Shown here one piece after another: positions 1-32,132 of a stretch of DNA of 64,000 bases. How positions within the stretch are numbered: position 1 is the first letter of the stretch; each line of letters opens with the position of its first letter. The notes below the pieces were generated by a model. The model searched no databases. It was not told where the DNA came from and saw only the letters and a list, made by a program, of their open reading frames with translations. This stretch comes from an uncultured Thiobacillus sp. GTDB lineage: Bacteria; Pseudomonadota; Gammaproteobacteria; Burkholderiales; Thiobacillaceae. The stretch is from contig CAZUVC010000009.1 of the NCBI GenBank assembly GCA_964623745.1, forward strand, positions 10,221-74,220. Direction: 5' to 3'. The position numbers were made by a program, and so were the translations under genes.

Positions 1-1083
1 CGTGCTGGTGGAACCCAGCGGGGAGGTCGATACAGTGCTCGAAGATTCCTTGAATGCTTGCCCGATGCCTGAGCCAATCCCCGCGAGGAAGGCATTCGCC
101 AGCGCCTGACCCTGCTTGGAAACCAGTCTTCCGCGCATCCCGGCCTTGCCATCCTCACCGGCTACATAACCTTTAAGCGATACGTCGACCGCCCCGCCTT
201 TCTGGTCGATGCACGACAGACGATCCGTCCTGATATAAGCACGCTCAGAAGATATGTCGCCGTAGCCATTGGCCGTGACCACGCAATCCTTCATGTCGGC
301 CATGTAGCGATTGGGCAACTGGGCTGGATCGAGCACCCGCATCAGAATTGGATGTGGATTGTTTTGTGCCTGTCCACCCGTCGGCGCATCCAGACCCGCC
401 AGTAACACCACGCGCATGAACGTCCCGGCAGGAAGATAGTTCTCAGCCGATGTCTTCTCTTCCTTGGATGGGGCGGACGACATGCCGGCGGCTTGTGGCT
501 GCGCCTGCTGTACGGCAGGCGCAGCCACCGTCGAATCGGAAACTTCGAGCGTGAACGCGCGCTTCACCACGGGCTGCATCGGCGCATTCGGATCCATGCC
601 AGGCTGTGACAACTGTCCAGGCCTTCCAGGAGGCGGTGGGGGAGGGGGCGGCAATGCCGCCGACCCCATGGGTTGCAGCGGGCGTAAATTGCCGCCGGGC
701 TGAATTACCACTGCCGGGGGAGGCATCGGCACTTCGTTGATTCCCGCTCCGGCGGTGCCTTGCATGGCTCCGCCACTCCTTTGCGGGCTATTCACCATGT
801 TCTGCTTGATCGCAGCAATTTCCTTGTTCAGCGCCTCGATCTTTGATGCTTCGTTCGCCCGCCAAACATCCTTGTCGTTCAGTTGCTGTCCCGGAACAGC
901 CAGGTTGAGGCTGACCTGTTCCGGCTTGTCCACGGGAGCCAAATCGGTTTTATTACTCCCGGAGTCGGCGAACCATGCCGCAGCCAAGGCCACCCCGACA
1001 ATCACGGCGCCGACGCCGCCCGCCATCATGAGTTGCTTCTTGCGGGCAGGCGAAGCCTTGAGGGTGGGTATGATTTTCGCCAT
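1..1083 (-). CDS. traB: F-type T4SS TraB/VirB10-like protein (partial, runs off window)
   Basis: ATG at 1083 overlaps the traK stop; N-terminal TM, Pro-rich linker, then YLPAGTFMRVVLLAGLDAPTGG typical of TraB; follows traK. Confidence 0.85.
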   Translation of the reverse strand, partial: MAKIIPTLKASPARKKQLMMAGGVGAVIVGVALAAAWFADSGSNKTDLAPVDKPEQVSLNLAVPGQQLNDKDVWRANEASKIEALNKEIAAIKQNMVNSPQRSGGAMQGTAGAGINEVPMPPPAVVIQPGGNLRPLQPMGSAALPPPPPPPPGRPGQLSQPGMDPNAPMQPVVKRAFTLEVSDSTVAAPAVQQAQPQAAGMSSAPSKEEKTSAENYLPAGTFMRVVLLAGLDAPTGGQAQNNPHPILMRVLDPAQLPNRYMADMKDCVVTANGYGDISSERAYIRTDRLSCIDQKGGAVDVSLKGYVAGEDGKAGMRGRLVSKQGQALANAFLAGIGSGIGQAFKESSSTVSTSPLGSTST

Positions 1084-1808
1084 TACCGCACCCCCTCGTT
1101 CCGTTTCACCACAAAGACCTGGGTGCTGCGACCCGGCTCAACGGTCAAGTCGCGAACCGACACAGCCAGCACGCCTTTTTTGTAGAATTCCTGTTCGGCG
1201 ACCCGAACCGGGGCGTCGCTGATATTGAACAGGCGATACTGTTCACCCACCAGTGAATGTCCGGTTAGAACATGCTCCAGCGCAAAACGGGAGCCTTTCC
1301 AGAGGTGGATTTCCTCCCAGGTTTTCTTCACCTCCAGACCCTCCGGCAAACCTTCACCCGCCAATGCCTGAATCATTTTCTTGATCGCCTGCTGGTAACT
1401 ACTGGCACGTTCTATCTCGCCAGGCTTGGCTGCAACGGAAGCAGGGACAGCCATTTCCTTGATCACGATGGTTTCCCCTGGAATATCCTGGGGCTGCAAC
1501 ACCAGCGTGTAGGTTTTCCCGCTTTGACTGAACACAAACACTCCGAACGGATCCTTGGCCAATGGCTGAATCAGAGCCTGCCCGGTGGTGGCGTCCGCGC
1601 TGCCAGTGAGCAGTCCGTCGTCGGCGGACTTGACCAGGCGAACCCGGCCTCCCTCGATCGAGATGCGGTTCAAGTCTCTGAGACTCACCTTGACGAATAA
1701 GGTCTTGCCCTCGACGCCTTCCACTACCTGCAGAGCGTGTGAGGACGAAGCGGCAAATAAGCAAAAAAGGCTAAGGAGCAGTGATTTCTTCAAACGGTCG
1801 GGCAGCAT
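1083..1808 (-). CDS. traK: F-type conjugal transfer protein TraK
   Basis: Signal peptide, LNRISIEGGR motif, position between traE and traB. Confidence 0.85.
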   Translation of the reverse strand: MLPDRLKKSLLLSLFCLFAASSSHALQVVEGVEGKTLFVKVSLRDLNRISIEGGRVRLVKSADDGLLTGSADATTGQALIQPLAKDPFGVFVFSQSGKTYTLVLQPQDIPGETIVIKEMAVPASVAAKPGEIERASSYQQAIKKMIQALAGEGLPEGLEVKKTWEEIHLWKGSRFALEHVLTGHSLVGEQYRLFNISDAPVRVAEQEFYKKGVLAVSVRDLTVEPGRSTQVFVVKRNEGVR

Positions 1809-2361
1809 TCTTACCTTCTCTCATACCGGTCAGCAGCACACGGCCGCCGCGTTGGCCAAACTCAAATACGTAGGTTTTGTTCACCTGTGATGTTCTGCTG
1901 TCCCCCAGATAGGTGTTGAGCACACCCTGAACAGCGATGCGTTGCTTTGCCTCGTCCGGCATGACCATCGCGATCGCCATAAAAGTGCTGGCGTTATCCG
2001 CCTTGATCTTTTGGGCATAAGCGCCGGCGTCGATTTCCAGCTTCCCGTAGAAGCGGGGGTCGATATAGGACTTGAGTGTGCGGTGATTAAAGTCCACGTT
2101 CTGTGGCGTCACATCGAAGTAGAGTTGGGCCAGAAACACGCCCATCTCGATCAGATATTCTTTGGAAACCTTGTCATCCTCGACCCAAAATGTTGTGTGG
2201 ATCGTCGGTGGAACCAGTGTTTCGCGATGTGTGTCGCCTCGCGTCAGGAAGGCGATCAACATCAGGAGCAATGCGATCTGCGACAGGGCGAACATCATCA
2301 CAGCCCATCTGCGCACACCGAGAGTGACGGCCACTTGGCCGCTCAGTTTGTCGATTCTCAT
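1771..2361 (-). CDS. traE: F-type conjugal transfer protein TraE
   Basis: Start MRIDKL at 2361 (TAATG overlap with traL); TM then LVPP..FWV...VSKEYL and VTPQNVD motifs. Confidence 0.85.
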   Translation of the reverse strand: MRIDKLSGQVAVTLGVRRWAVMMFALSQIALLLMLIAFLTRGDTHRETLVPPTIHTTFWVEDDKVSKEYLIEMGVFLAQLYFDVTPQNVDFNHRTLKSYIDPRFYGKLEIDAGAYAQKIKADNASTFMAIAMVMPDEAKQRIAVQGVLNTYLGDSRTSQVNKTYVFEFGQRGGRVLLTGMREGKNAARPFEEITAP

Positions 2362-2651
2362 TAACCAATGAACTCTCGTATGCTCGAAGGCGGTGTTGCC
2401 TTCATTCCAAGGTTGACGGGTAGATGCCAATACAGCAGGTGCATGCCATAAGCTCTGTGCTGGCCGAATTTGGCTTTGCGGTAAAGCCAGGCCATCACTA
2501 ACCCGAACCCCGTGAAGCTCACGAGCCAGCCTGTAATGAGGCCAAATACAAAGAAGGACATGAACAACATGGCCACGTCGAAATCCCACCACATGAACTT
2601 GGGAGGGTCGTCCAGGCGGGTCGGGATCGTTGGCGAATCTTGATTGGCCAT
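2361..2651 (-). CDS. traL: Conjugal transfer protein TraL
   Basis: IPTRLDDPPKFMWW and HLLYWHLP motifs, 96 aa. Confidence 0.9.
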   Translation of the reverse strand: MANQDSPTIPTRLDDPPKFMWWDFDVAMLFMSFFVFGLITGWLVSFTGFGLVMAWLYRKAKFGQHRAYGMHLLYWHLPVNLGMKATPPSSIREFIG

Positions 2652-2676
2652 GCTGTTCAGTCCGGTGATGCTTCGC

Positions 2677-2994
2677 TTAAATCACAGCGGCGAACATGCC
2701 GTTGATGATCGTCGGGCCAAGGCCGAACACGATGGCGAAGACGATGCCCACCAGCGCCGGCATGGCGGTAGACTTAGCGAAGCCAATGAGTGCGCCTACA
2801 ACGAACGCGGCGATCGCCAGCGCTTTGCCCAGATAGCCTTCGGCCCAACCTACCAGCATGTCGAACAGGGCTTGGAATTCTGTACCGGTCACACCACCGC
2901 CGGCGGTGGTGGCCCATGCCGAGCTGACCATCAGAGCGGAGAGAAGCCCCCCGACAACGACTTGTTTTTTGCTGAACATTTTCATGAAATTCAT
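2677..2994 (-). CDS. traA: Conjugative pilin TraA
   Basis: Start MNFMKM after AAGGAG RBS; signal peptide plus two hydrophobic helices, WAEGYLGKALAI; directly upstream of traL. Confidence 0.8.
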   Translation of the reverse strand: MNFMKMFSKKQVVVGGLLSALMVSSAWATTAGGGVTGTEFQALFDMLVGWAEGYLGKALAIAAFVVGALIGFAKSTAMPALVGIVFAIVFGLGPTIINGMFAAVI

Positions 2995-3031
2995 TTGATT
3001 CTCCTTGAGCGTGTGTATCGAAAGATTGGTT

Positions 3032-3277
3032 TCATGGTCCCGGTGTCTCAGCAGTCTCAAGGTCTCGCATCACGATGTGGCGCACCAAATCCAGCATGGC
3101 TTGCCTCGCTGTCCCATCGTTCAGACAGTATTCAATGGCGGCTGTGGCCAGTCGCCTTTCCAAGAACAGGTTTCTGTTGGGAAGGGCTCTCCCAAGCTCC
3201 TGCAGCTTGAGTTTGGTTTCCTCGCGCACAAGGACCGCCTTGTATCCCGGTTCGGTAGTGTTTTTTGTCATTCCCAA
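3032..3277 (-). CDS. Small hypothetical protein, possibly ribbon-helix-helix DNA-binding
   Basis: 81-aa ORF packed within the operon; KAVLVREETKLKL strand-helix pattern. Confidence 0.55.
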   Translation of the reverse strand: MGMTKNTTEPGYKAVLVREETKLKLQELGRALPNRNLFLERRLATAAIEYCLNDGTARQAMLDLVRHIVMRDLETAETPGP

Positions 3278-3280: not shown

Positions 3281-3802
3281 CTATTCGTTAATGCTGATCA
3301 CCGCACGTCTTGCGCCAGGGTTCGTGCTGGGCGGATGCTCGATGCAGCATCGCGAATCGACTTTGATATTCCATACCGGGATTCCATTGGCGCGCATGAA
3401 ACCCGCGACCGCCATCCCGCGCTTGTACGCCAGAGTTTCGTTAAATCGCTTCTTGCCTATCTGATCTGTGCTGCCAACAACCAGAAGACGTCCCGCGTCA
3501 CGATGCAGTTTGAGAAAAGCATTGAGACTGGCTTTCTCGGCATGGCTGAGCCGGGCCGAGGCCAACGCAAAACGAACTGAAGTAGAGGAATGAACGGTGA
3601 GCGGCTTAGCAGCGCTATCCGATACCCTCGCTGGCATGGGAACGGCTACAGGCAGGTCAAACACCTTCGCCGTCCTTACAGGGCAATCGCCTTGATGACA
3701 CATGACATAAGCGCTAATGGAATCGGACTGCGTCACTTGCCAGTTGGCAGCCATCGACGAACCTGCCCAGACCATGGCAAGCAACGTGAACATGCGTTTC
3801 AC
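3281..3802 (-). CDS. OmpA-family peptidoglycan-binding protein (positional analogue of GGI yag)
   Basis: Signal peptide; VRFALASARL, GSTDQIG..FNETLAYKRG and RRAVI OmpA C-terminal motifs. Confidence 0.8.
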   Translation of the reverse strand: MKRMFTLLAMVWAGSSMAANWQVTQSDSISAYVMCHQGDCPVRTAKVFDLPVAVPMPARVSDSAAKPLTVHSSTSVRFALASARLSHAEKASLNAFLKLHRDAGRLLVVGSTDQIGKKRFNETLAYKRGMAVAGFMRANGIPVWNIKVDSRCCIEHPPSTNPGARRAVISINE

Positions 3803-4263
3803 GAGGATTTCCCCATTGCCCGGTAGACTTTCCAGGCATAGCTATTTCGTGCGCGGCGGCACGCATCACCTTTGAGTCGCGTGCATGCCGCGTTGTACGC
3901 ACCGACCGCTTCCCACGAAGCGCCATACCGAGTGAAGTTGTTCGCCAGCACCCAGGCCCCCAGCTTGACGCTGGTACAGGGATCGTAGAGGTGGGTCTCG
4001 GTGTATCCGAGCGACTTGATAGGGTTTCTCCGCAGCCACCGGGTATTAATCTGCATCAGCCCAATGTCTTGAGACTGTGTACTAGCTGTGTGAGTGCTGT
4101 TAACCGCATGCGGTCTCATATTCGACTCAACTTTGGCCACTGCCTTCAGCAATAGTGGAGAGACCCCATACATCTCCCCCGCCTCATCAAAACAGAAGGC
4201 GTGGGCTTGGGTATAAAAAAGGGCCGTCAAGAGGACAACCCAAGGGGAGGAGAGGGAAACCAT
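3799..4263 (-). CDS. Lytic transglycosylase (SLT; LtgX/VirB1-like)
   Basis: AVAKVES, DIGLMQIN and AVGAYNA SLT motifs; likely start MVSLSS at 4263. Confidence 0.9.
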   Translation of the reverse strand: MVSLSSPWVVLLTALFYTQAHAFCFDEAGEMYGVSPLLLKAVAKVESNMRPHAVNSTHTASTQSQDIGLMQINTRWLRRNPIKSLGYTETHLYDPCTSVKLGAWVLANNFTRYGASWEAVGAYNAACTRLKGDACRRARNSYAWKVYRAMGKSS

Positions 4264-4270
4264 GGGGCGA

Positions 4271-4338
4271 ATGCTATTGATGCGCTCATCCCGCTTCCAG
4301 CGGAAATCAAAAGAATGTTTTTTTGATTGATTGCTGAA
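4271..4338 (-). promoter_or_regulatory. Putative tra promoter: box TTCAGCAATCAATCAAAAA (4338-4320) plus -10-like TAGCAT (4276-4271)
   Basis: Identical box with identical 43-nt spacing to TAGCAT at 25731-25798. Confidence 0.6.
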
Positions 4339-5010
4339 ATTAAAATCAGAAATGGATAAAATTATTGGTTGCCAAAAAAAAAGAAAGCCCAAGAAGGGCC
4401 AAGGGACTTACCCGAAAGGGCTTGTTCGCTTGAATAGACGCGAACACAAAGGAATAAGGGGGGCTGAAGGGGAAATGCTTACTGGTTAAGGTCTATAAAT
4501 GGCTGGACAAAGAGCGCCCACCAGTTTGCGTCCTAGCGGAAATCACCAAAAGCTTTTGAGAGTAAAGGCTCAGACTTGGCCTGAAAAACATTGAAAGTAC
4601 AGGTCGCCTCTGTCAGATAAAAACCGGTCAGGTACTGCCATTGGCGGTGTGGGAAAAATGCGTTACTGGGCGTCCGGAGCAGGTCAGTAAAATCGGCGTG
4701 GTCTTCTGCTCCTCGGCCTAAGCGGCCTTTCACGCTTTATGCCCTACAGATCATCGCGAATGTCCGCTTCCTACGGACTCGAACTGGTGCTCCCCCTATC
4801 CTAAGCAGATTTATTGAAAGCAGGCCATCAACAAACAGCTCTTTTAGGTTGGTAAGCTGCCTCTGCCAGCAACAGATGGTCATTGATATCGTTTTGGGTG
4901 AACAGTGTTCGGAGCGGCCGTACGCAAGTTTCCATAATTCACTTGCTGAATGCCCTTATAAAACAGCTAAAGTGCGGAAAATTATTCACGCAAATGGCGC
5001 TTTTCACGAC

Positions 5011-6009
5011 TTAAAATTTGACCGACACGCTGAAAGCGCCAAAATTGTCACCGTTTTCCTGGGCCTGGAACTCGCGCGAACGAAGTACATGGGTGTAACT
5101 AAAGCGTATATCTGACCAGTCCAGGACAAAGCCGAACTGCAGGTCACCAACCAGCGGCTCCTTATCAACGCTGCGGCTATCGCGGAAGGTGTTGCCGTCG
5201 AGAAAGATGTTGTGCGCAACCGCCCGTCCCTCGATGCCTGCAAACAGGTACCAGCCGAAATCGGACACCAGAGCGAAGTCCGCTGAGCCCGGTAGGCCGG
5301 GCTGGATACGTGGCGGCCCGTAGTCGCTGGGCAGTTGCTCGCCGTAGCGCAGCGTGACGCCTGCATTGGCGTAGGTGAACACGTTGCCGAGTGCGGCCCC
5401 TACGTGGGGGGTGAAATCCAGTTGGTTTCCCAGGAAAGTCGTGATCGCGAATCTCCGCCAACTGCGCTGGTAGGCCAGGTTGATGCCCAACTCATCGCCG
5501 AGTTGGGTGTCCCAGCCTTGTGGCTCATCTGCGCCCACGACATCGTGGATGAATTTCTGGGTTTGCTCGGCTAGCGAGGACGGCCCGACGATGCCCAAAC
5601 TGACCCCGAACTGATCAAGCTGCTTGCCTAACTCCACGCCCAAGCCAATTGAACCGTATAGCCAGCCGGCATAGGGACGCTCATCCAGGGGTGGGTTGGC
5701 GACGGTGATATCGCTCGGCACGAACATGCTCTGGCCGAAGGCATAGCCATGGCGAATCTCGCCCTGCTCGGGGAACCACGGCACGAGGCGGGCCAGTTTG
5801 ATGGCCCATTCGGGTGTGGAGGTATCCGATTTGGGTACCCAGACCAACCTCACACCGTTCGTATAGTGCCGGTCATTGCCATAGAAAAAGTCATTTTCCA
5901 GGACGAAGCTCAACGTCCCATGTTTCCCTGGTTCAATTGCCGAGGCCGTGAGCGGGCAGGTGATCCCGATTGCAAGACGTAGCAACGTCGATCCGGCTAT
6001 TTTGTTCAT
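5011..6009 (-). CDS. LpxR-family (DUF2219) outer-membrane beta-barrel, putative lipid A deacylase
   Basis: Signal peptide, ENDFF..DRHYTNG and RPYAGWLY motifs, terminal Phe. Confidence 0.8.
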   Translation of the reverse strand: MNKIAGSTLLRLAIGITCPLTASAIEPGKHGTLSFVLENDFFYGNDRHYTNGVRLVWVPKSDTSTPEWAIKLARLVPWFPEQGEIRHGYAFGQSMFVPSDITVANPPLDERPYAGWLYGSIGLGVELGKQLDQFGVSLGIVGPSSLAEQTQKFIHDVVGADEPQGWDTQLGDELGINLAYQRSWRRFAITTFLGNQLDFTPHVGAALGNVFTYANAGVTLRYGEQLPSDYGPPRIQPGLPGSADFALVSDFGWYLFAGIEGRAVAHNIFLDGNTFRDSRSVDKEPLVGDLQFGFVLDWSDIRFSYTHVLRSREFQAQENGDNFGAFSVSVKF

Positions 6010-7130
6010 GCCATGGTTGCCAGGGTTTTGCGGAAGCGTGCCAGGGACAGGGTGAACAGGCTGGCTCCGATCACGGCCAGGCTGATGAATTGAGGCCAGA
6101 CAATGTCAAGGCCCGCGCCGCGATACAGGATTCCTTGCGCCAGCGTTACGAAATGGGTGTTGGGCGCGGCCTGCATGATGAACTGGACGGCGTCAGGCAT
6201 GCTTTCGCGCGGCGTCATGCCCCCCGACAGGACCTGCAGCGGCAGCAGGACCATCAACAGCAGCAGCCCGAACTGCGGCATCGTGCGGGCGAGGGTGGCG
6301 AGGAAAATACCCATGGACGTGGTCGCGAACAGGTGCAGGGTCGCACCCGCGAAAAACAGCGCGACTGAGCCTTCGATGGGGACTGCAAGCAGGCCGCGGA
6401 CAATGAACGTCAACGAGAACCACGATGCCGCGAGCACGACTAGGGCCATGGCCAAAACCTTGCTGCTCATGATCTCGAAAGGCGTCACGGGCATCACCAG
6501 CAGATGTTCCACCGTCCCATGCTCGCGTTCTCGGATAAGGGCGGCACCGGTGAGCACGATGGACAGCATGGTGATGGCGCTGATGATTTCCATAACGGAT
6601 CCGAACCAGGCCTGATTCAACTCGGGGTTGAAACGCGCCCGCAAGACCAGATCGACTGCGGGCACCGATTCCGCACGATACCCCCTGAGGAAATCGTTTA
6701 CCTCGCCCGAGACGATGGCCTGGATATAGCTGCTGCCGGTAAAGCTCTGGCTCATCCGGGTGGCGTCGACATTGAGCTGCAGCACGGGACTATGCCCCGC
6801 GAGGAGGTCGCGCTGGAAGCCGGACGGGATATGCAGGGCGAAAGTGTCGAGTCCGGCATCCATCCGTGCATCCATCTCGGCTGGCGTGATCAGGACCGGC
6901 GGCAGGAAGTAGGGCGGATAGATGACGTCGATGATACGCGTGGACAGCGAGGAGCGGTCCTCGTCGACGATGGAGATGGGCGCTTTGTGTAGCGTTTCCG
7001 GCATCGCCGTGGCGGCGGTGTAGATCGAAAACGTGAACGCGTAAACGATCAATACAAGCATGATGGGGTCGCGCACGAGGCTGCGCAGTTCCTTGATGCC
7101 AAGATGGAGGATGTTGCGTGCGGATCGCAT
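6006..7130 (-). CDS. yhhJ: ABC-2 transporter permease (YhhJ-like)
   Basis: GIKELRSLVRDP and REREHGTVEHLLVMP motifs; follows rbbA-like gene. Confidence 0.85.
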   Translation of the reverse strand: MRSARNILHLGIKELRSLVRDPIMLVLIVYAFTFSIYTAATAMPETLHKAPISIVDEDRSSLSTRIIDVIYPPYFLPPVLITPAEMDARMDAGLDTFALHIPSGFQRDLLAGHSPVLQLNVDATRMSQSFTGSSYIQAIVSGEVNDFLRGYRAESVPAVDLVLRARFNPELNQAWFGSVMEIISAITMLSIVLTGAALIREREHGTVEHLLVMPVTPFEIMSSKVLAMALVVLAASWFSLTFIVRGLLAVPIEGSVALFFAGATLHLFATTSMGIFLATLARTMPQFGLLLLMVLLPLQVLSGGMTPRESMPDAVQFIMQAAPNTHFVTLAQGILYRGAGLDIVWPQFISLAVIGASLFTLSLARFRKTLATMA

Positions 7131-7132
7131 GC

Positions 7133-9922
7133 TTATCGCTCCTGCTTCCTGAGCAGGGCCGCGCCGAGGCTGATGAGGACGGGAACGGCGATCAACAGGG
7201 GAATAAAGGAATCCCGGAGATCCATGAACCCGAGCCCTTTCGAGAACGTGCCGCGCGCAATCGTCACGAAATGGGTGGTCGGATAGATCTGCCCGATCAA
7301 GGCGCCCACACCCTCCAGGGAAGAGACGGGATCAATCAGCCCGGAGAACTGCACGGCCGGCAGAATGGTTAGCAGAGCGGTGCCGAACAGGGCGGCGACC
7401 TGGCTGCGCACGAAGGCCGACATCAGCAGCCCGAAGGCGGTGGCCGCAATCACGTAGAGGAAGGCTGCGCCGGCCAGGGTCATGAAACTTCCCTTCAGCG
7501 GCACGCCGAACAGGGAGGTGGCCAGTGCGGTGAGCAGCAGGAAATTGATCATGGCAAGCGCGATGTAGGGAATCTGCTTACCAAGTAGAAACTCCAGCCG
7601 GGTGACCGGGGTCACGTAGAGATTGACGATGGAGCCGAGTTCCTTCTCCCGCACTACCGATAGTGCGCTCAGGATTGCAGGGATCAGCATCAGCAATAGC
7701 GGGATCACCGCCGGTACCATGGCCGGCAGGCTGGATACGTCAGGGTTGTAGCGAAAGCGCGTTTCGATGCTGAATTGCCCGGCTGTCGCCGCTGCCCCAT
7801 ACGCCTCGCGCGCCTGGGTGGTGAGCCAGTGCTGGTGCATGCCCTGGACATAGCCGCGCACTGTCTCGGCGCGCATGGGCATGGCGCCATCGATCCAGGC
7901 GCCGATTTGCACCGGTGTGCCGCGCGCGATGTCGCGCGCGAAACCGGGAGGGATCTCGACGGCCAGACTGATTTCGCCAGTGCGCATGCGCTGATCCAGT
8001 TCATCATGATCGCGGATCGGCGGGTGCTCGATAAAGTAGCGGGAACCGGAAAGATTCAGCGCGTAGTCCCGGCTCAGGTTGGTCTGGTCTCGGTCGAGCA
8101 CGGCAAACGCGAGGTCTTTCACGTCCATGCTGATGCCGTATCCCAGCACTAACATGAGGATGACGCTGCCCAGCGCGGCCAGCGTGAGACGAATGGGGTC
8201 GCGGCGCAGCTCGAGTGACTCGCGCCGGGTGTAACTGAGCAGGCGGTACAGGCTGAAACTCTCACGACCGGCGGGGAAGGCTGCTGCGGTGTAACTGGCT
8301 TGCCCTAGAGTGGGCTGAAGTGCGTCTGTAGCGCGTGCAGGAGACACGGATTCGTTCTTCGCGACGGCATCCTCCAGATAGCTGATGAACGCCTCTTCGA
8401 GGTTGTGTGCTCCGCGCTTCTCGATAATCGCTGCCGGCGTATCGCTCACCAGCACTTGGCCGGCGTGCATCAGCGAGATATGGTCGCAACGCTCGGCCTC
8501 GTTCATGAAGTGGGTTGATATGAAAATGGTGACGTTATCCTTGCGCGCAAGGTCGATCAGGATGCGCCAGAAGCCGTCGCGCGCCACCGGATCGACGCCA
8601 GAAGTCGGCTCGTCCAGGATCAGCATCTCCGGTCTGTGGATCATGGCGACCGCGAGCGACAGGCGCTGACGCTCACCCAAGGGCAAGGCTGCCGGCAGAT
8701 CGCCCATAATTTCGGCGAGCCCGAAGTGCTCACCCATCTCCCGCACCCGCGGCTCGATATGTTCCGGCGGGATGCCAAACAGCCGCGCGTGCAGCACCAG
8801 GTTCTGCCGCACTGTGAGTTCGCCGTAAAGCGAGAAGGACTGGGTCATGTAGCCCACGCGGCGGCGCGTGTCGATGTCGTGCGGATTCAGCGGGTGGCCG
8901 AACAGCCACGCCTGTCCTTCGCTTGCGGGCAGCAGCCCGGTGAGCATCTTCATGGTGGTGGTTTTACCGCAGCCATTGGAGCCGAGGAAGCCGAAGATAT
9001 CGCCTCGGCGGATGCGGAAATTGACGTGATCGACCGCCATGAAGGTGCCGAAGCGCATGGTGAGATTGCGCGCCTCGATGGCCACCTCGGTTTCTTCGCC
9101 CGCAGCGCGGGGCTGGATTACCACGGGCCGGTAGCCTTCGCGCTGCACCGCGGGAAGCAGTCTGATGAAAGCCTCTTCCAGCGTACGGGTTTCAGTGCTC
9201 GTCAGTAGTTCCTGCGGCGTGCTGGTGGCGAGTACCCGGCCGTCGTTCATGGCGATCAGCCAGTCGAAGCGCGCAGCCTCTTCCATGTAGGCAGTGGCGA
9301 CTAGCACGCTCATGCCGGGCCGCTCTGCGCGGACACGTTCGACCAACTCCCAGAACTGCCGCCGCGACAGCGGATCGACGCCGGTGGTGGGCTCATCTAG
9401 GATCAGCAGGTCGGGGTCGTGGATTAGTGCGCAACAGAGGCCGAGCTTCTGCTTCATGCCGCCGGACAGCTTGCCGGCGGGGCGGTCCGCGAAAGGGGCG
9501 AGTCCGGTGGCGTTCAGCAGCTCATTGATACGCCGCTCGCGCTCGCGGCGGCCGTGTCCAAAAAGCCTCCCGAAGAAGTCCACGTTCTCGAATACTGAAA
9601 GCGTCGGATACAGATTCTTGCCGAGGCCCTGCGGCATGTAGGCGATGCGCGGGCACACCGTGCGGCGGTGTTGCGCATCGGCCATGTCGCCGCCCAGCAC
9701 CTCGACCCGTCCCGTCTGGATCGCCCGCGCGCCGGCGATGAGCGAAAACAGGCTCGATTTGCCGACGCCATCCGGCCCGATGACGCCGATCATGCAACCT
9801 CCCGGCAACTTGAGGCTAATGGCGTCCAGCACGCGCTCCTTGCCGTAGCGCAGACCAAGTCCACTGATGCGAACCACGGCCGCAACGTCTGGCGAGGGGG
9901 CGACGCCGTCGCGTTCGCTCAT
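7133..9922 (-). CDS. rbbA: RbbA/YhiH-like dual ABC ATPase-permease fusion
   Basis: Two Walker A motifs ([16 protein letters not shown]), LSGGM, DEPT, C-terminal permease. Confidence 0.9.
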
Positions 9923-10992: not shown

Positions 10993-11091
10993 CGTTGTCT
11001 TTACCTTGCGTGGTGTTGTTCGATAAATTCTGGGCCGGTTAATTGCATATAGCCACAGTGGCGAGTGGTTGTTGCTTTCGCTCGTCTGCGC

Positions 11092-13080: not shown

Positions 13081-13091
13081 GGTAACAGACC

Positions 13092-24488: not shown

Positions 24489-24495
24489 TCGTCAC

Positions 24496-25692
24496 ATGGA
24501 CACGAAGGCCCGCAACGCCCTTACGAAGCTGCTGGAAGCCGGAAATCGGGCGACAGCGGGTGTCCGCTCGACGCGGCCGGCGCTGACCCGGTCGCAACTG
24601 GCCGACTACCAGGCCACGCGCTCGCTGGCCGACAAGGAGGCATTCGAGGCGGCGATGAAGGCGGCTAGAGCCGAAGGCGCCGTGGCTCTCACTTGGGAAA
24701 AAGGCTTTGGCGAGGAAGGATTCATCCAGCGCGTCGAATTGCTCGACCTCGATGCGCTGGCGAAACTGCTTGGCGTGGAGACCGCCGCGATCCGCCTTGA
24801 AAAGGCGGCCGCGCAATTCGCCCCTCTGCTGCCGGATTTTCCGGTTCTGAACGACGTGTTGGCTCGCTGGGCCAGCCTGAAGAAGGTCCGTACCTTTGGC
24901 CCGGAGGACTCCCAGGACTGGATCGATGCTGCCCGCATCATCCGTTTCATGACCGCCGCCCGTGAAAACAGAACGGTTGACGAGCCGATCCGCGAAGTCA
25001 GCGCGCGATTGTTCAAGGACAGCAAGCGCATCGAAAAGCTAGCAGCGCCTGTCGATATCCTGCTGACGGGTGATGTGGATGCCGAGATCCGCGAGTCTGC
25101 CGATGTATGGCAGGAAATCGGGGTATTCCGTGAAGAGCAGCCGGTCCGAATGGCCGGGAAAATCGTGGTGGCGCGCACACGAGTAACGGAGTGCTTGGAT
25201 GCGCCATACAGCGCATTTTCCGCATCATCTGTAACCGGGCTGGCCGGCATCCCGAAAATGGTGATGACCATAGAAAACCAGACCACTTTCCATAGCGAGG
25301 CAAAACGCCGCCATGATGAGGAGGTCTTGCTCATTTATACCGCCGGGATGCCCACCCCAGCATGGCGAGCCATGTATGTTCGGCTGCTTGGCTGCTTGCC
25401 GCCAGGTGTGCCCGTCTATCACTGGGGCGATATTGACGAAGGAGGGTTCAGGATTGCCTCCATATTGGCTCAGGATGCCAGATCAGCTGGGCATACCATT
25501 CAACCGTGGATGATGCATCCAGACGACGTTCCAGAGGACCGACGCGTTAAAGCCAGACCGCACACACTAGAACGAATCCGGCGTTTTGCGAGTGCCGCAG
25601 GCTGGGGAACGCTGGGTGAGGAAATTGCAAAAGCAGGCTTTACTGCCGAACAGGAAGGACTACCCATCGTTGGGCTAGAGCAGCCCCAGTAG
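24496..25692 (+). CDS. jetD: Wadjet JetD Toprim nuclease (DUF2220-like)
   Basis: IENQTTF and HWGDIDEGG Toprim motifs, EQE C-terminal motif; start MDTKAR. Confidence 0.85.
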   Translation: MDTKARNALTKLLEAGNRATAGVRSTRPALTRSQLADYQATRSLADKEAFEAAMKAARAEGAVALTWEKGFGEEGFIQRVELLDLDALAKLLGVETAAIRLEKAAAQFAPLLPDFPVLNDVLARWASLKKVRTFGPEDSQDWIDAARIIRFMTAARENRTVDEPIREVSARLFKDSKRIEKLAAPVDILLTGDVDAEIRESADVWQEIGVFREEQPVRMAGKIVVARTRVTECLDAPYSAFSASSVTGLAGIPKMVMTIENQTTFHSEAKRRHDEEVLLIYTAGMPTPAWRAMYVRLLGCLPPGVPVYHWGDIDEGGFRIASILAQDARSAGHTIQPWMMHPDDVPEDRRVKARPHTLERIRRFASAAGWGTLGEEIAKAGFTAEQEGLPIVGLEQPQ

Positions 25693-25817: not shown

Positions 25818-26267
25818 GTGCAAAGAGTGCCCGTGTCTTCCATAGAAGAACCCAACAATCAGGATCATCCTGTCACGCTCTTCGCACACATTGCGGCACG
25901 ATTCGAACAAATCGAACTGTCCCACTGGACGGTCGTTGTGTTTGCATGGCTTGCCCGTTATGACGGGATCGATCGATGCTATTTTGAAGACGAAGAGGAG
26001 TCTCCAGCCCATGAGGTGCTTCATTGCATCTCCGAACTGGAGCATGGGACTACAGACGACGAAGTAGCCCACGCGCTATCTCATCTTGAGTTCCTTACTT
26101 GGCGTGTCCGCCACCCCGAAACCGCGGAGCGCTGGGATCCGCTCTCACTTTCCCTCAGTGATTTCATCGGCGGGGACTTATCGCCCAATTGCTGGAAATG
26201 GGAAGGGACTTTCCCGTCTTCATCCGTAATTGCCTCATGGCTCATCGAACAGCTCCCACACCGCTGA
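25818..26267 (+). CDS. Hypothetical protein (positional analogue of GGI yaf)
   Basis: 149-aa ORF whose stop overlaps the relaxase ATG (TGATG). Confidence 0.65.
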   Translation: MQRVPVSSIEEPNNQDHPVTLFAHIAARFEQIELSHWTVVVFAWLARYDGIDRCYFEDEEESPAHEVLHCISELEHGTTDDEVAHALSHLEFLTWRVRHPETAERWDPLSLSLSDFIGGDLSPNCWKWEGTFPSSSVIASWLIEQLPHR

Positions 26268-28339
26268 TGTCCGGTGATTGGCTGCTCATTACCGCTGGAG
26301 CCTTGGGAGTAGGCGGCGTATGGGTCGTTTGGCGTATTGCCCGCCACACCGACCACGCGGTGTCCGACCATTCAACGCCATCCGGTAGCGATTCAAGGGC
26401 AGCCAACCATATTAAGGTTCTACCTGGCAAAGCCGTCCTGGATCAACTCAACCTTCAAGCCCTGGTCGACGGATGTCGTGACCGCATGGGCTTCGACTAC
26501 ACCCTGTTCCACCAAGACTGCATGCCCGTCATCGAGCGGGCTGCGGAATGGACTCAACTGCTACCAGCCTCGGAATCGCACCATCACGCGCAGCCCGGTG
26601 GCCTCATGACCCATATGATGGAGTCGGCAGCACACGCGCTACGCTTCCGGCAGGGCTATCTGCTTCCGGTCGGAGCAGCCCCCGAGGAAATCCCGGCTCG
26701 CAAGCACCGCTGGACTTACGCGGTGTTCCTTGCCGCGCTACTGCATGACATTGGAAGGCCTATGGCCGATATCAACGTCCAAGTTCTCCGATCGAGAAAA
26801 CCTTGTGGCAAGTGGCAGCCTCTTGCTGGCTCGATGCTGGATCAGGGGTTGACGCATTACACGTTGAATTTCGAGATCACATGGGATTACGACCTGCACA
26901 AGAAACTGCCTATCGTGCTGTTCCAGCGGCTTGTCCCTTCCCATGTTCTCGCTTGGCTTGCCGATGACGTACAGCTCATGGGCGATTTGACGAGCTACCT
27001 TTCGGGGGATGATCAAGACAAGGGGGTGCTGCGAGAAATCGTCACACGCGCCGACTCCGAGTCAGTCAAGAACAACTTGATGCAGGGACCGCGCACCCGC
27101 TTTGCTTCCGCCCGGTCGGTGCCACTAATCGAACGCCTGATGCAAGCCTTGCGCCTGATGCTGGAAGAAGGGCGACTGGGCCTGAATAGGGCGGGCTCCC
27201 ATGGCTGGGTTTACGATGGAAAAATCTGGTTCGTGTCCAAGCGGCTGGCTGACGAGGTACGCCAGTTCCTGACTGAACGCGAAAGCGGGGAGGGCATACC
27301 TGGCAAGGATAAGAACGATCGCCTTTTCGATACCTGGCAAGAGTACGGTGCCTTGATCGCCACCAGTGAGAACCGTGCTGTGTGGCAGGTCATGGTCAGT
27401 CTCGATGAAGGGTGGGAACAAAAGTTGACCGTGCTGTGCTTCTCGCTCGACAAACTGTTCCAGTCCCCTGTGCTTTACCCGGAAACCATGAGAGGAAAGA
27501 TCATTGCCGGAAAACAGGATGCCTCATACATCCAACCGCTCGATTCGGAATCCGAGCTAACTATTGGTTCCATGAGTGATTCTGGCGTTGAGCCAGCCAC
27601 TAACCCATTAGAGGATCCGGCCAACCAGCTGTCGCTCGTCATACCGAAGCCAGATCCTACCCCCTCGCCGAACTCCGAAGAACAGCCGAAGCGAGCCAGC
27701 ACGGCTCTCCCTCCCATTCGCCCGCCGGCACAGCCCAGAGCGGCCGCTCTATCTGAACCAGGGGGCGCGGCTGAGGACGCAGGCTTTCTCGATGAAGATG
27801 ACACCGCGATCAAACATTCACCGAAACCCAAGCCCCCTGCTGCTGCAGCATTGAAGCCGGTTGCACCGGCAGGGCAGACAGCGGCCAGGCCCAAGCCTGG
27901 CTCGAAAAAGAAGGAACCCTCTGGTGCAGCCATGCGGTTCATGCGCTGGGTTCAGGAAGGCCTCTCGGAAGGCAGCATGCCGTACAACCGCGCGGACGCC
28001 ATGATTCACTTTGTTGACGAAGGAATGATGCTGGTTTCCCCAGTGATCTTTCGCAAGTTCGCCGAACTGTTCGGGGAGGAGGGCGATGGCACGCCATCGG
28101 ATCGAGCGGGAAGCAAGCTGGGGACCGGCATCCAGCGCCAGGTTACCAATGCTGGCTGGAATCTGGTTACCGGAGAGAAGAAGAGCAACATCCAGCGTTA
28201 CATGGTGATCGGCGCCGATGGCGAGGGCAAGAAACTGATCTCTGGCGTGGTCATACTGGATCCTGTTCGATTCGTGAATCCACTTCCGCCGAATAATCCC
28301 TGCATTGTCAGGTTCGACAAACCCATCGAACACGTCTGA
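26267..28339 (+). CDS. traI: MobH-family HD relaxase (TraI_2)
   Basis: LPASESHHHAQPGGL and LLHDIG motifs, N-terminal hydrophobic segment, Pro-rich linker, C-terminal domain. Confidence 0.92.
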   Translation: MSGDWLLITAGALGVGGVWVVWRIARHTDHAVSDHSTPSGSDSRAANHIKVLPGKAVLDQLNLQALVDGCRDRMGFDYTLFHQDCMPVIERAAEWTQLLPASESHHHAQPGGLMTHMMESAAHALRFRQGYLLPVGAAPEEIPARKHRWTYAVFLAALLHDIGRPMADINVQVLRSRKPCGKWQPLAGSMLDQGLTHYTLNFEITWDYDLHKKLPIVLFQRLVPSHVLAWLADDVQLMGDLTSYLSGDDQDKGVLREIVTRADSESVKNNLMQGPRTRFASARSVPLIERLMQALRLMLEEGRLGLNRAGSHGWVYDGKIWFVSKRLADEVRQFLTERESGEGIPGKDKNDRLFDTWQEYGALIATSENRAVWQVMVSLDEGWEQKLTVLCFSLDKLFQSPVLYPETMRGKIIAGKQDASYIQPLDSESELTIGSMSDSGVEPATNPLEDPANQLSLVIPKPDPTPSPNSEEQPKRASTALPPIRPPAQPRAAALSEPGGAAEDAGFLDEDDTAIKHSPKPKPPAAAALKPVAPAGQTAARPKPGSKKKEPSGAAMRFMRWVQEGLSEGSMPYNRADAMIHFVDEGMMLVSPVIFRKFAELFGEEGDGTPSDRAGSKLGTGIQRQVTNAGWNLVTGEKKSNIQRYMVIGADGEGKKLISGVVILDPVRFVNPLPPNNPCIVRFDKPIEHV

Positions 28340-28340
28340 C

Positions 28341-30401
28341 ATGAGCTATCCCATCGAAAATCTGTTCAGGCCCGCGGTCGAATACGTGCCGGCCTTTGCC
28401 TCGTTGACCGGTGCCATTCTCCTGATGAGCGCTCACGAGTGGTTTTTCCTGCCAAAGGAGCTGATCGTGACAGCCGCTGCCGGCATGGTCCTGCATGCCG
28501 GCGTGCGACTGAACCAGGGTGTTCGGGTATCCCGATTTCAGCGTAACCTTACCCGGCTGCCTAAGTACGTCATTCCTACCAGCGAAATTCCCGTCTCGAA
28601 AAACCGCCTTTTCCTCGGTCTTGGGTTCAAGTGGGATCAGCGCCATACCCAGCGCCTGGCGCTGGCGCGTGATCCCAAAAACCGTCGTTACATCACTCAA
28701 TCCGGCCTGTATACCTGGGCGCGTCGCTTCGAATTCCGCCACGAAGGGCGCGGCGGCGCCTCGGGCTGGATGGCGCGACAGACCAGGAAGGAAGCCTGGT
28801 GGAATCCGGTTACGCCATTGCCGCCTGTCGGGGGCGATCCGATCATTCACGGCCTGGAGCCGGACGAAACGGAAATCAGCATGGATCTGGTCGAGCGGCC
28901 CGGTCACATGGTCGTGCTGGGCACCACACGGGTCGGCAAATCACGCCTCGCCGAGGTGCTCATCACGCAGGACATTCGGCGAGGCGACGTGGTGATCGTA
29001 TTCGACCCCAAGGGCGATGCCGGTCTGATGACCCGCTGCTACATCGAGGCGGCCATGGCCGGGCGCGAGTTCTTCATGTTTCACTTGGGCTACCCCGACC
29101 AGTCTGCACGTTACAACCCGATTGGAAATTTTGCCCGAACCACTGAGGTCAGCACCCGTATTGCTGGGCAACTTCCGGGCGAAGGACAGTCTGCCGCGTT
29201 CAAGGAATTTGTCTGGCGCTTCGTGAACGTGATCGCGCGCGCGCGCACCACCCTCGGCTACCGTCCGGATTACCGCATGATTTATGAGGATGCGGTCAAT
29301 ATCGACGCCTTGGCGCTGGAATACTTGCGCTTCTGGCTTGACCGGGAACAGCCCGGCTGGAATGAAGCGGTTGATGCCATTGAGATGGATAAAACCCAGA
29401 TTCAGCAGGCAATGAAATCTGGACGGACGATGGATGCCATGAAAATCCTTCTGTTCGTCCGCGAGAATAATCTGCATGACCCGATAGCTGACGGCCTGGC
29501 TTCCATCCTGTCGAACGACCGCAGCTATTTCGAGAAACTGGTGTCCAGTCTCTATCCCTTGCTGGAAAAACTTACCACCGGAAAAACCGCGCAGATACTG
29601 TCTCCGCAGTACGACGATCCGACTGATCCAAGGCCGATCTTCGACTGGATGAGCGTCATCGAACGCGGCGCGGTGGTCTACGTCGGGCTCGATTCGCTCT
29701 CTGATTACGAAGTAGCTGGCGCAGTGGGCAACGCCATGTTCGCCGACCTGACCTCGATCGCCGGCCAGACCTACAAGTTCGAGCAGGGCTACGGGCTGTC
29801 CACGGCCATCCCCAAGCGGAAACTGTCCATCCATGCAGACGAGTTCAACGAGCTGATCGGCGACGAATTCATCCCGCTGCTGAACAAGGCCGGCGGTGCG
29901 GGATTCCAAGTAGCGGTCTATACACAGACTTGGGCCGACGTGGAGGCCCGCATTGGTAACAAGGCGAAGGCATCCCAGATTGGTGGCAACCTTAATACCC
30001 TGATCATGCTAAGGGTCAAGAACAAGGAAACCGCCGAAATTCTCACCGACCAGCTCCCGGATGTGCAGCTGGTCACCTCGATTCAGGCCAGTGCTGCCAC
30101 GGACAGTTCAGATGATCGTGAGGTGTTGTCTTTCACCACACGGAACGAAGATCGGATCAGCACCCAGGAAGCCCCCATGTTGTCGCCTGCTGATCTGGTG
30201 CAGTTGCCCAAGGGTCAGGCTTTTGCGCTTATCGAAGGCGGCCAGCTCTACAAAATCAGACTCCCTCTGTTCGACCCCAACGAAGCGCACCCCATTCTTG
30301 CATCGTTGGAAGACATTGCCGCGAGCATGCGGCAGAAATACGACACGCACGGCACCGAGACGGAAAATCTGGTCGTTGAAGGGAAGGGCAGTGGCTTCTA
30401 G
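28341..30401 (+). CDS. traD: Type IV coupling protein TraD
   Basis: ENLFRP N-terminus, Walker A GTTRVGKS, FDPKGD and HADEFNE motifs. Confidence 0.92.
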   Translation: MSYPIENLFRPAVEYVPAFASLTGAILLMSAHEWFFLPKELIVTAAAGMVLHAGVRLNQGVRVSRFQRNLTRLPKYVIPTSEIPVSKNRLFLGLGFKWDQRHTQRLALARDPKNRRYITQSGLYTWARRFEFRHEGRGGASGWMARQTRKEAWWNPVTPLPPVGGDPIIHGLEPDETEISMDLVERPGHMVVLGTTRVGKSRLAEVLITQDIRRGDVVIVFDPKGDAGLMTRCYIEAAMAGREFFMFHLGYPDQSARYNPIGNFARTTEVSTRIAGQLPGEGQSAAFKEFVWRFVNVIARARTTLGYRPDYRMIYEDAVNIDALALEYLRFWLDREQPGWNEAVDAIEMDKTQIQQAMKSGRTMDAMKILLFVRENNLHDPIADGLASILSNDRSYFEKLVSSLYPLLEKLTTGKTAQILSPQYDDPTDPRPIFDWMSVIERGAVVYVGLDSLSDYEVAGAVGNAMFADLTSIAGQTYKFEQGYGLSTAIPKRKLSIHADEFNELIGDEFIPLLNKAGGAGFQVAVYTQTWADVEARIGNKAKASQIGGNLNTLIMLRVKNKETAEILTDQLPDVQLVTSIQASAATDSSDDREVLSFTTRNEDRISTQEAPMLSPADLVQLPKGQAFALIEGGQLYKIRLPLFDPNEAHPILASLEDIAASMRQKYDTHGTETENLVVEGKGSGF

Positions 30402-31116
30402 GAATTCCGGTCTCTATGACAGCAATGTGGCTGTCGCTTTTCTGTGGCCATTGAAATGGCTTATTGGGACGCTCATGCTATATGTCATGCTTGGGCTCAT
30501 CGCCCTCACCGCGGCTTTCCTGTTTGCCAAATATCAATGGCTGGATCCTGTGCAAGCTGCCGACGCTTTGTTCCAGTCGGAAACCGCACGCGTCAAAGAG
30601 CTTGTACGGCCAGGAAGCCACGCCGCCGGCCTTTCCACACTTACCGAGCAGACCCAACAGTGGACTTACTGGCTTTTTTTCAAGGCGACATCACTCCATG
30701 AAGCCACCTATGCCTATTTCTCTGGATATCAGGTCAACGAGGTTGACCGGCTGTACCTCAGCCAGTTCGTTGCGCGCAATGCGCGGGAAATCTATCTGGC
30801 TATGAACGTGATTCAGGTGTACGGGATCAGAATTGGCTTCGTGATGGCTGCGATCCCTTTGTTTTTCCTGTTGTATGTCCTGGCTGGCGTAGACGGCCTG
30901 ACCGAGCGTTATATCCGCCGCGCGTGCGCAGGACGCGAATCGGCGGATCTGCATAAAATTGGGCGCCTCGCGAAGCTGATGTTTTTTGCATCCGGGGTCA
31001 CGTTGTATCTTTGCCTACCGGTCGAAATGAGTCCGTTCTGGATCATTGCGCCGCTGGCGCTGGTTTTTACCGTGGCCACACGGATTCAGTGGCAGTTTTA
31101 CAAGAAGTATTTTTAG
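30391..31116 (+). CDS. DUF4400-like ICE membrane protein
   Basis: DGL..RYIRRACAGRESA and QFYKKYF motifs; follows traD. Confidence 0.8.
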   Translation: MASRNSGLYDSNVAVAFLWPLKWLIGTLMLYVMLGLIALTAAFLFAKYQWLDPVQAADALFQSETARVKELVRPGSHAAGLSTLTEQTQQWTYWLFFKATSLHEATYAYFSGYQVNEVDRLYLSQFVARNAREIYLAMNVIQVYGIRIGFVMAAIPLFFLLYVLAGVDGLTERYIRRACAGRESADLHKIGRLAKLMFFASGVTLYLCLPVEMSPFWIIAPLALVFTVATRIQWQFYKKYF

Positions 31117-31214
31117 GTGAAAACCAGCCCCCAAACCCGCAACCTGTGCGAGATGGGTTTGGGTGGCGCCAGATGGGCGCTTACCATTTATTCCATTACA
31201 GGTATAATGCATGT

Positions 31215-31592
31215 ATGGCAACACAAGAAAAACCGCTCATCTGGGTCGGAGGATGCAAAAAAGACTTGATGGGCCTTCCTGCCGATGTGCGGAAATTCTT
31301 CGGTCACGCCCTTGACTTCGCGCAGCGCGGCGATCAGCACGACGCGGCGAAGGTGATGAAGGGATTCGGCGGGGCCGGCGTCCTGGAAGTGGTCGAAAAC
31401 GATATCGGCGGCACGTACCGCGCTGTCTATACCGTCAAGTTCGAGGAGGCCGTGTTCGTCCTGCATTGCTTTCAGAAGAAGAGCAAGAGCGGGATCGCCA
31501 CACCGAAAGAGGACATGGACATCATCCGCACCAGGCTGAAGGTTGCCGAGGTGCTTGCAAAGGAGCTACGAAATGGCAAAACGAATCATTGA
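31215..31592 (+). CDS. RelE/HigB (Gp49-like) type II toxin
   Basis: GTYRAVYTVKFEEAVFVLHCFQKKS; TATAAT at 31203 just upstream. Confidence 0.88.
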   Translation: MATQEKPLIWVGGCKKDLMGLPADVRKFFGHALDFAQRGDQHDAAKVMKGFGGAGVLEVVENDIGGTYRAVYTVKFEEAVFVLHCFQKKSKSGIATPKEDMDIIRTRLKVAEVLAKELRNGKTNH

Positions 31593-31908
31593 TGGCATTG
31601 AGGTCGAAATGGGCTCGGGGAATGTCTTTGCCGATCTCGGTCTGCCCGACGCCGACAAACTCAAAATCAAATCCGGTTTGGTAATCGAGATCACCAAAGC
31701 CGTGCGCAAACTCGGGCTCACTCAAGATGAGGCGGCTCGCCGCATGGGCATCACACAGCCGAAGGTGTCCGGCATGCTGCGCGGCGACTTCTCCAACTTG
31801 TCCGAACGCAAGTTGATGGACTGCTTAAATCGCTTGGGCTACGACATCGAAATCAAGGTGAAGCCTGCCGCTGAACCTCTTGGACATTTGGTGCTTGCTG
31901 TCGCTTGA
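31573..31908 (+). CDS. XRE/HigA-type antitoxin
   Basis: SGNVFADLGL, LTQDEAARRMGITQPKVS HTH. Confidence 0.88.
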   Translation: MAKRIIDGIEVEMGSGNVFADLGLPDADKLKIKSGLVIEITKAVRKLGLTQDEAARRMGITQPKVSGMLRGDFSNLSERKLMDCLNRLGYDIEIKVKPAAEPLGHLVLAVA

Positions 31909-32104
31909 CCGCTGTACTGGCGATCTCCAGTAAAGCCTGTGGTGCTTGCAGAACGATTTGATTTCGAGTTCGTATGTACGCTGAGATATTGACAAATTGA
32001 AAGAATTTAGGTTTGATGGAGGCCTAGTAGGGTCAGGGATGTGGCCAGACGAGTCTACTTGAGCAGCGCGAACGCCCCTTTGGGGCTTTATCAAGACCCG
32101 ATAA

Positions 32105-32132
32105 TATACACATAATGTATATTATGTTAAAT
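32105..32132 (+). other. dif: XerCD dif recombination site
   Basis: TATACACATAA-TGTATA-TTATGTTAAAT; spacer and XerD arm identical to E. coli dif, XerC arm divergent; KOPS converge here. Confidence 0.9.

Follow-up and report, generated by a model that had tools for sequence, protein, structure and literature searches.

How does a conjugative element of the gonococcal genetic island (GGI) family enter and leave the dif site of its host? The question is raised by a 64,000-nt stretch of DNA from an uncultured Thiobacillus sp. (GCA_964623745.1), hereafter the window, which covers C9:10221-74220 of a 2.97-Mb draft genome in 71 contigs and in which a GGI-like island ends at the chromosomal dif. A dif-integrated element of the GGI clade almost certainly lies here, and this much is common to our reading and to the first two of the rival explanations weighed below. 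Regarding its mechanism, we propose from sequence comparison that the element likely integrates and excises with its own retuned XerD*, paired with XerC* or host XerC, on the element arms, while host XerC and XerD would occupy the host arms. We put the probability of this reading at about 0.6. Here xerC* and xerD* denote the element-borne xerC-like and xerD-like genes, and XerC* and XerD* their predicted products. C45 and C9 are contigs of the studied genome (also labeled G000), relatives carry labels G### (genomes) and L### (loci), and X1-X4 are sequencing runs with contigs. Position 1 is a mere window edge, and the element continues through C9 to the left of it.

Two junctions and an empty site at dif

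Outward from dif, the gene order is a toxin-antitoxin (TA) pair, a DUF4400 gene, traD, a MobH traI, a small open reading frame (ORF), cargo, a lytic transglycosylase gene (SLT), an OmpA-domain gene, and traA, L, E, K and B. A sequence-only reading had described this order and the lack of an adjoining integrase, and gene calls and family matches bear out both. No integrase lies beside attR. The closest tyrosine recombinase, an integron integrase (44244-45224; TIGR02249, 501 bits), is 12 kb away from the element, and we rejected it as the element integrase because it lies outside the att sites. The site attR itself is the sole window match to dif at up to 3 mismatches, and 0 of 100 shuffles gave a match. 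It is a hybrid of an element XerC arm and a host XerD arm, and its XerD arm TTATGTTAAAT is the only exact one genome-wide. The site at 32105-32132 is likely the working dif of the chromosome.

The genome-wide scan revealed one further dif core, on C45, which reads ACTTCGCATAA TGTATA TTAGCAAGTCC. Its XerC arm is canonical and its XerD arm degenerate, exactly as the sequence-only reading had predicted for the partner of a hybrid att site. Inward from this site follow parA, parB, a DUF2857 gene, an AcaB/PFL_4669 gene, topB, an S49 peptidase gene and the contig end. Here parB is broken by an N run (L001:11156-11166), a scaffold gap, and the G106 orthologue is intact. An Arm-DNA-binding domain on C45, fused to GGDEF/EAL, was rejected as the element integrase, as it lies outside the att sites; at L002:11513-14812, 11 kb outside the left att, a 1099-aa ORF has an integrase Arm DNA-binding domain fused to PAS/GAF/GGDEF/EAL.

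In G105, we observed an empty site: the C45 chromosomal flank (87%), one canonical dif, about 330 bp, and then window 40858-41900 (92%). Since this site joins both chromosomal flanks, it orients C45 and C9 relative to each other. Empty sites read ACTTCGCATAA TGTATA TTATGTTAAAT, the same sequence that PMC2731167 tabulates as the dif of Thiobacillus denitrificans. With both junctions and an empty site read, the claimed integration at dif stands. Chromosomal genes flank both element ends, and no tRNA genes were found on the C45 and C9 ends. The outcomes that the earlier reading had named as contrary to it, namely no second site, a far-end integrase with a tRNA att, or a plasmid, did not appear.

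On C9, the element runs left of the window from dsbC to traN, and the contig starts in or just beyond traN. Family searches for TraG and TraH gave no match in the studied genome's assembly, and traF is likewise missing, because the middle of the element falls in an assembly gap. A 22.9-kb contig of run X1, which may be the source of the studied genome, links traN, traF, traH, traG and xerC* and matches the window without differences. The series traF-traH-traG is found in contigs of runs X1-X4.

Four sister elements are closed between two dif-like sites on one contig each: G106 (173.5 kb), G081 (166.0 kb), G077 (118.7 kb) and G121 (81.1 kb). Their flanking sites are direct repeats read on single contigs, and the two ends in the studied genome sit on separate contigs. 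Two exact dif-core matches occur in 27 of 112 genomes, and the left-end arm in 22 of 100 (the studied genome included), again with unrelated outer flanks. We collected 28 loci with TraD of at least 87% and left out 7 for short flank; a dif-like site lies within 2 kb of traD in 19 of the other 21, a canonical dif is found 7.1 kb on in one, and the last was missed by the scan. Meanwhile, the nearest relatives of the studied TraD are mostly labeled Thiobacillus, and a named cultured strain, T. denitrificans DSM 12475 (L101), carries both traD and the att site.

The element-side sequence up to dif is common to 7 of the 19 congener loci read, and the right flanks differ in those 7. Run X4 shows the same element end, with 3 differences in 1.6 kb, on a different flank, and at the junction the contigs of the four runs hold other flanks and a variant without the TA pair. 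The backbones of G106, G081 and G077 are 95-96% identical to the window, far above the 72-80% between the xerC regions of G000 and G106, which suggests recent transfer between host species. In G081, a second element, 73% identical, directly follows at a site with both arms altered, forming a tandem at dif. A metagenome scan gave five junction matches, none of them to the element's own left arm: in four, the right end meets a second element that is 73% identical, and one joins a different upstream sequence. A metagenome contig (coverage 556 by its name) starts exactly at a tandem-type att junction (L258:1-33).

Further afield, a Methylophilaceae element of 113 kb is placed at G136:C4:330794 and 443739; about 60 bp past its XerD arm are duplicated at both ends. 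A ParA search of 401 genomes of the order matched 11, with a dif-like site beside parA in 2 of 12 loci outside the studied genome, too few to generalise. In a different family and a different genus, dif-like sites also immediately precede parA homologues (L316:1352, L313:2396), a hint of wider spread.

The kinship with the GGI, also claimed from the sequence alone, is supported by a backbone colinear with that of the N. gonorrhoeae GGI and by a quick IQ-TREE tree of TraD (42 rows from 83, without bootstrap and without SXT/IncC; row L121 is labeled from G121). In this tree the window falls together with rows from Methylophilaceae, Hydromonas and Neisseria, the GGI included (SH-aLRT, an approximate likelihood ratio test, 96), and the TraDs of the PFGI-1/ICEclc class fall outside this clade. 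A dif-like site lies by yaa in 14 of 15 rows of the clade and in one row outside it (L132). Eight TraD loci outside the clade have other integrases downstream.

Element-borne xerC* and xerD* and the access to dif

In G106, where 128 of 177 called ORFs were annotated, an xerC-like gene lies beyond traG (341.5 bits, above the XerC cut-off of 335.15), and the SNF2 helicase gene is followed by an xerD-like gene (317.4 bits, just below the XerD cut-off of 329.6). They are 64% (xerC*) and 50% (xerD*) identical to XerC and XerD of the studied genome. Both genes lie inside all four complete sisters and also on the attR contigs of G098 and G074; across 112 genomes, xerC* (at least 74%) occurs in 17 and xerD* in 18. 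The attribution to Xer recombination is upheld in part: the element sits at dif, but reliance on host XerCD alone finds no support in that form, as 4/4 complete sisters carry xerC* and xerD*. In a quick tree each forms its own clade (SH-aLRT 100), and a search of XerD* against plasmids gave matches of only 41-47%. The pN/pS ratios are 0.06-0.26 (12 pairs, crude counting, leaving out an out-of-frame xerC* pair, G099), and judged by these ratios both genes are under purifying selection. In several elements a DUF3701 tyrosine recombinase adjoins xerD*. A GGI relative of Neisseria sp. has a divergent tyrosine recombinase between yaa and a dif-like site (L159:12811-13900), and another has an Xer-like ORF 6 kb beyond traD, with no dif-like site in the locus (L174:17938-18900).

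All six catalytic residues (R-K-H-R-H-Y) are present in 44 of 46 XerD*-like proteins, the other two being fragments, and all 46 keep E183/E184, the contacts of XerC and FtsK (PMC5052618). R220, however, occurs in none of the 44 complete proteins, compared with 12 of 12 host-like ones. The recognition helix M-T-R-Q is replaced by I-S-T-G, L-N-T-S/G or M-R-V-E, with loss of R220/Q221. R220 has been modeled to touch the G that occupies position 5 of the XerD arm, which is a critical position (PMC9226527), and Q221 to contact dif position 24 (PMC2731167). In all Thiobacillus element sites read, position 5 is C or A, never G; the arm types are TTAGC, TTACC, TTAGA and, in G121, whose XerD* has M-R-V-E, TT(T/C)CA. 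The Methylophilaceae element keeps the arm G, and its only xerD copy, separately captured, has TRQ intact. The helix change of XerD* matches the loss of the position-5 G in the element arm, and for this reason supports a retuned XerD*.

The proposed course would be as follows. The free circle would carry one site, with both arms altered, between yaa and parA. XerD*, with R220/Q221 replaced, would bind the altered XerD arm, which host XerD would bind poorly. Crossover in TGTATA would leave the parA end with a crippled site and the yaa end with a usable dif. The element would stay stable until its own recombinases are expressed, as host FtsK-XerCD would be unable to excise it. TraI would nick the origin of transfer (oriT) beside ltgX, and the F-type type IV secretion system (T4SS) would transfer the element by conjugation.

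FtsK, guided by motifs of the FtsK orienting polar sequence (KOPS) type, would move past the crippled site, and dimers would be resolved at the window dif. Copies of GGGNAGGG, which we take to be such a motif, converge at attR: the left flank has a ratio of 4:1 toward dif, the assembled element 10:2 and the right flank 1:14. In 5 of 5 environmental elements the motifs are directed at the yaa end (p 0.0001-0.012); the GGI counts of 0 and 2 are uninformative. Applied to this element, the model that has been cited for the GGI (PMC5357621, PMC9226527) would have FtsK strip the crippled site and work at the window dif.

Several observations weigh against an element that moves by its own Xer pair. 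Among the 27 two-site genomes, both genes were found in 13, one in 2 and neither in 12, the studied genome included, although these are drafts with several sites at contig ends. For the studied strain, xerC* is seen solely in contigs of runs that may be its source, and xerD* is unseen, the middle being outside the assembly. Unlike usual integrases, both genes are separated by tens of kb from the att sites and also from one another. The pairing of helix and arm is loose: the common arm occurs in G098 (LNTSTLR), and another arm in G077 (ISTGTLR). The classes that covary represent three related lineages rather than independent trials. The XerC* arginine is retained even where the inner XerC arm changes, and the Methylophilaceae element has a degenerate XerC arm at its parA end yet only an xerD copy and no xerC copy. 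An excised-circle junction was found neither in one metagenome scan nor in the contigs of four runs, which drop rare forms. Moreover, host XerD recombines the very degenerate arm of TLC-phi, given an activator (PMC6744903).

There is another explanation that we consider unlikely but worth weighing, in which the element is a classical IMEX, a mobile element that integrates by exploiting Xer. Host XerC and XerD would integrate it, through FtsK or some activator, and xerC* and xerD* would resolve circle dimers, act on internal palindromes, or back up host dimer resolution. The GGI, with the same backbone at dif and no Xer gene, is consistent with this, as are the FtsK-contact glutamate kept in XerD*, the internal palindromes with a GGCCGA centre in G106 and G081, and the host-type helix of the Methylophilaceae xerD copy. 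However, the element XerD arm has 7-8 changes in 11 bp, position 5 among them, compared with 4 outer changes in the GGI, and FtsK-driven integration was reported to be limited to near-canonical arms, position 5 being crucial (PMC9226527). The DUF3653 activator was found in 0 of 5 genomes, in a search confined to this activator family, and no dif-like palindrome with a GGCCGA centre was found in the window. The match between helix change and arm change also argues for a retuned XerD*.

We regard it as quite improbable that the element is a domesticated island, kept mainly for DNA secretion or defence cargo as in the GGI and no longer self-transmissible. GGI transfer has not been observed (PMC10272882, PMC6736028), and the undetected circle and the absence of traF, traH and traG from this assembly fit such an island. 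Against it stand the near-identical backbones across many host species on unrelated flanks, the end on another flank in run X4, traF-H-G in the contigs of runs X1-X4, full-length traA and trbI, the tandem elements at dif, and the ORF after traG in G106, which gave no AtlA family match. That the adjacency to dif is incidental and reflects a plasmid, an assembly error, or an element whose far end has a dedicated integrase and tRNA site has a negligible probability. The two ends do lie on different contigs, and more distant TraD relatives have downstream P4-type integrases or lie on plasmids; the chromosomal genes at both ends, the tRNA-free contig ends and a best plasmid TraD of 53% speak against it, and the closed sisters and the G105 empty site refute it.

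If the element does use its own retuned XerD*, a broader idea follows, which we hold tentatively and at slightly less than even odds. Conjugative elements that integrate at dif may, rather than merely borrowing host XerCD or relying on a foreign integrase, have captured host xerC and xerD and retuned both the XerD helix and their own site into a private key to dif, one that host FtsK-XerCD would be unable to use. The capture of xerD would have taken place at least two times, in Thiobacillus and in Methylophilaceae, and the key may have been lost in the GGI as a descendant. If true, the loss of its own Xer genes would explain the elusive integration and near-immobility of the GGI, whose entry into dif has been described as long elusive (PMC6744903). 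With apparently mobile GGI relatives in harmless sulfur oxidisers, and both junctions and candidate recombinases known, the question of dif entry becomes testable. The XerD* proteins would be natural XerD variants with a predicted change of DNA specificity. Our full-text literature search, which lacked most subscription papers, turned up neither a GGI-like element described at dif outside Neisseria nor a dif-integrating element that has an XerC/XerD pair of its own. In a June 2026 preprint (10.64898/2026.06.12.731946), three IMEX classes are still listed as using host Xer, with activators XafT and XafV.

Window genes, cargo and flanking DNA

Table 1. Features of the element in the window (positions in the window; '.', no strand assigned)
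Feature	Position	Strand	Evidence or remark
traA, then traL, traE, traK, traB	1..3060	-	traA 2677-3060 by NF041281
81-aa ORF between OmpA-domain gene and traA	3032-3277		no family matched
OmpA-domain lipoprotein in yag position	3281..3802	-	PF00691
ltgX, lytic transglycosylase	3799..4392	-	SLT; G106 orthologue 51% to GGI LtgX
Candidate oriT upstream of ltgX (conserved motif, inverted repeat)	4394..4481	.	83% to uninterrupted G121 gap
TetR, HlyD, RbbA-type ABC ATPase/permease, ABC permease, LpxR-family protein	5011..11706	-	cargo
Resistance-nodulation-division (RND) efflux system: membrane fusion protein, AcrB-family permease, outer membrane factor	11809..17653	+	cargo
WYL regulator and Wadjet type I jetABCD	18051..25692	+	PADLOC JetA1, JetB1, JetC1, JetD1
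Small ORF, 149 aa, in yaf position	25818..26267	+	resemblance to GGI Yaf weak
MOBH relaxase TraI	26189..28339	+	NF041494 326 bits (cut-off 200); TraI_2, TraI_2_C
TraD coupling protein	28305..30401	+	TIGR03754 852 bits, above cut-off; 56% to GGI TraD
yaa orthologue, DUF4400	30061..31116	+	PF14348; GGI Yaa vs G106 orthologue E 1.6e-7
Gp49/DUF891 toxin and HTH_37 antitoxin	31011..31908	+	antitoxin 31543-31908, toxin ORF 31011-31592
Conserved non-coding element end beside attR	31986..32104	.	77-89% alignment to G005 and G035, both without TA pair
attR	32105..32132	+	TATACACATAA TGTATA TTATGTTAAAT; XerC arm from element, centre TGTATA, XerD arm from host

The features of the window are collected in Table 1. 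The true start of the yaa orthologue is probably close to the traD stop. The TA pair is optional, as the att site lies about 1700 bp from traD with the pair and about 850 bp without it. The 149-aa ORF has the right place and size for Yaf, and its match to GGI Yaf is weak (24% aligned identity; hhalign probability 2.3%, E 0.02). The gene labels ybi, ycb, ybe and yea are assigned by position in the GGI.

The gap between yaf and ltgX is a cargo hotspot, as proposed earlier. It stays below 1 kb in the GGI, G121 and the Methylophilaceae element, and elsewhere reaches about 5 kb (G005), 14 kb (G077), 19 kb (G106), about 21 kb (the window) and 27 kb (G081), with differing contents. The Wadjet block also occurs in G026 (99% identical), G081, G011 and G077, at another site in the last. 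It forms a complete anti-plasmid system carried on an element that is expected to circularise. The 5011-11706 efflux block is found elsewhere within the G106 element (81-87%), whose gap contains Shedu and Gabija. Defence cargo is dense in the G106 interior (L077-L082, L175-L176), with Shedu, SIR2-HerA, two pairs resembling Gabija, a second Wadjet-like operon, a type III restriction-modification set and several TA pairs. The family provides a vehicle that moves Wadjet, Gabija, Shedu, SIR2-HerA and efflux pumps among Thiobacillus. The internal dif-like palindromes with a GGCCGA centre lie at cargo borders (G106:C1:2174373, G081:C18:260746).

The candidate oriT aligns with the ltgX-upstream region of the GGI and stays on the ltgX side of the cargo. 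In the GGI, oriT sits between yaf and ltgX (PMC6736028). Because conservation of the repeat that lies upstream of ltgX extends as far as the GGI, in which oriT is located there, cargo insertion appears to spare oriT, and we propose 4394-4481 as a candidate for this function.

Just past attR, window 32133-40857 holds a transglutaminase-like gene, a CusA/CusB-type RND system and copper-oxidase genes. This block is missing at this place in G105 and has a partial 69% match inside the G081 element, so it is a separate variable block. Further on, window 44244-53900 is a chromosomal integron, 12 kb from dif, with intI divergent from low-GC small ORFs without Pfam families.

Relation to known systems

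The closest known system is the GGI of N. gonorrhoeae (G139, 58.7 kb). The gene order is nearly the same from parA-parB-acaB-ssb-topB-DUF3577-DUF3275-SNF2, via traG to traA and ltgX, to the divergent traI-traD-yaa. Both have traI-traD-yaa, preceded by yaf or here by the small ORF in its position, divergent from ltgX-yag-traA...traG, with an F-type mating pair formation apparatus (MPF-F) and a MOBH relaxase, although traF, traH and traG are here known from the sisters and the run contigs. The parA-parB-ssb-topB module at the far end, the dif sites at both ends and an oriT-like repeat before ltgX are also shared. In contrast to the GGI, the Thiobacillus elements are 81-173 kb long, carry large cargo, also in the yaf-ltgX gap, have their own xerC* and xerD*, lack a match after traG (in G106) to AtlA, on which the GGI's release of single-stranded DNA into the medium depends, and bear signs of recent spread between species.

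The att geometry differs as well. The GGI has two canonical XerC arms and an XerD arm that faces yaa, carries 4 outer changes and keeps the position-5 G, and no Xer gene is present. In the Thiobacillus elements, both site arms are altered, the degenerate XerD arm and crippled site lie at the parA end, not the yaa end, and relative to yaa and parA the site is inverted.

The GGI-like T4SSs of other proteobacteria share the MPF-F apparatus, MOBH TraI, TraD and Yaa in GGI order (PMC4207684). In that 2014 survey, the parA-exp1 region is confined to Neisseriaceae, and no specific insertion site is given for the other GGI-like systems; here, unlike in the survey, the parA module and dif insertion are both found outside Neisseria. 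Integrative and conjugative elements of the PFGI-1/ICEclc class share the module of MOBH relaxase (TIGR03760), ParB (TIGR03764) and PFL_4669/AcaB (TIGR03761), but the mating apparatus here is F-type, not G-type, there is no P4-type integrase or tRNA target, and their TraDs branch elsewhere. With a strict IMEX, the element shares integration at chromosomal dif, and differs in that 4/4 complete sisters encode their own Xer genes. TLC-phi type IMEX (XafT; PMC6744903, PMC9226527) likewise have a double-stranded att site with a strongly degenerate XerD arm and a dif-identical centre, and form tandem arrays at dif. The present element, in contrast, has no DUF3653/XafT, is conjugative and about 100 kb or more in size, and appears to bring a recombinase of changed specificity rather than an activator.

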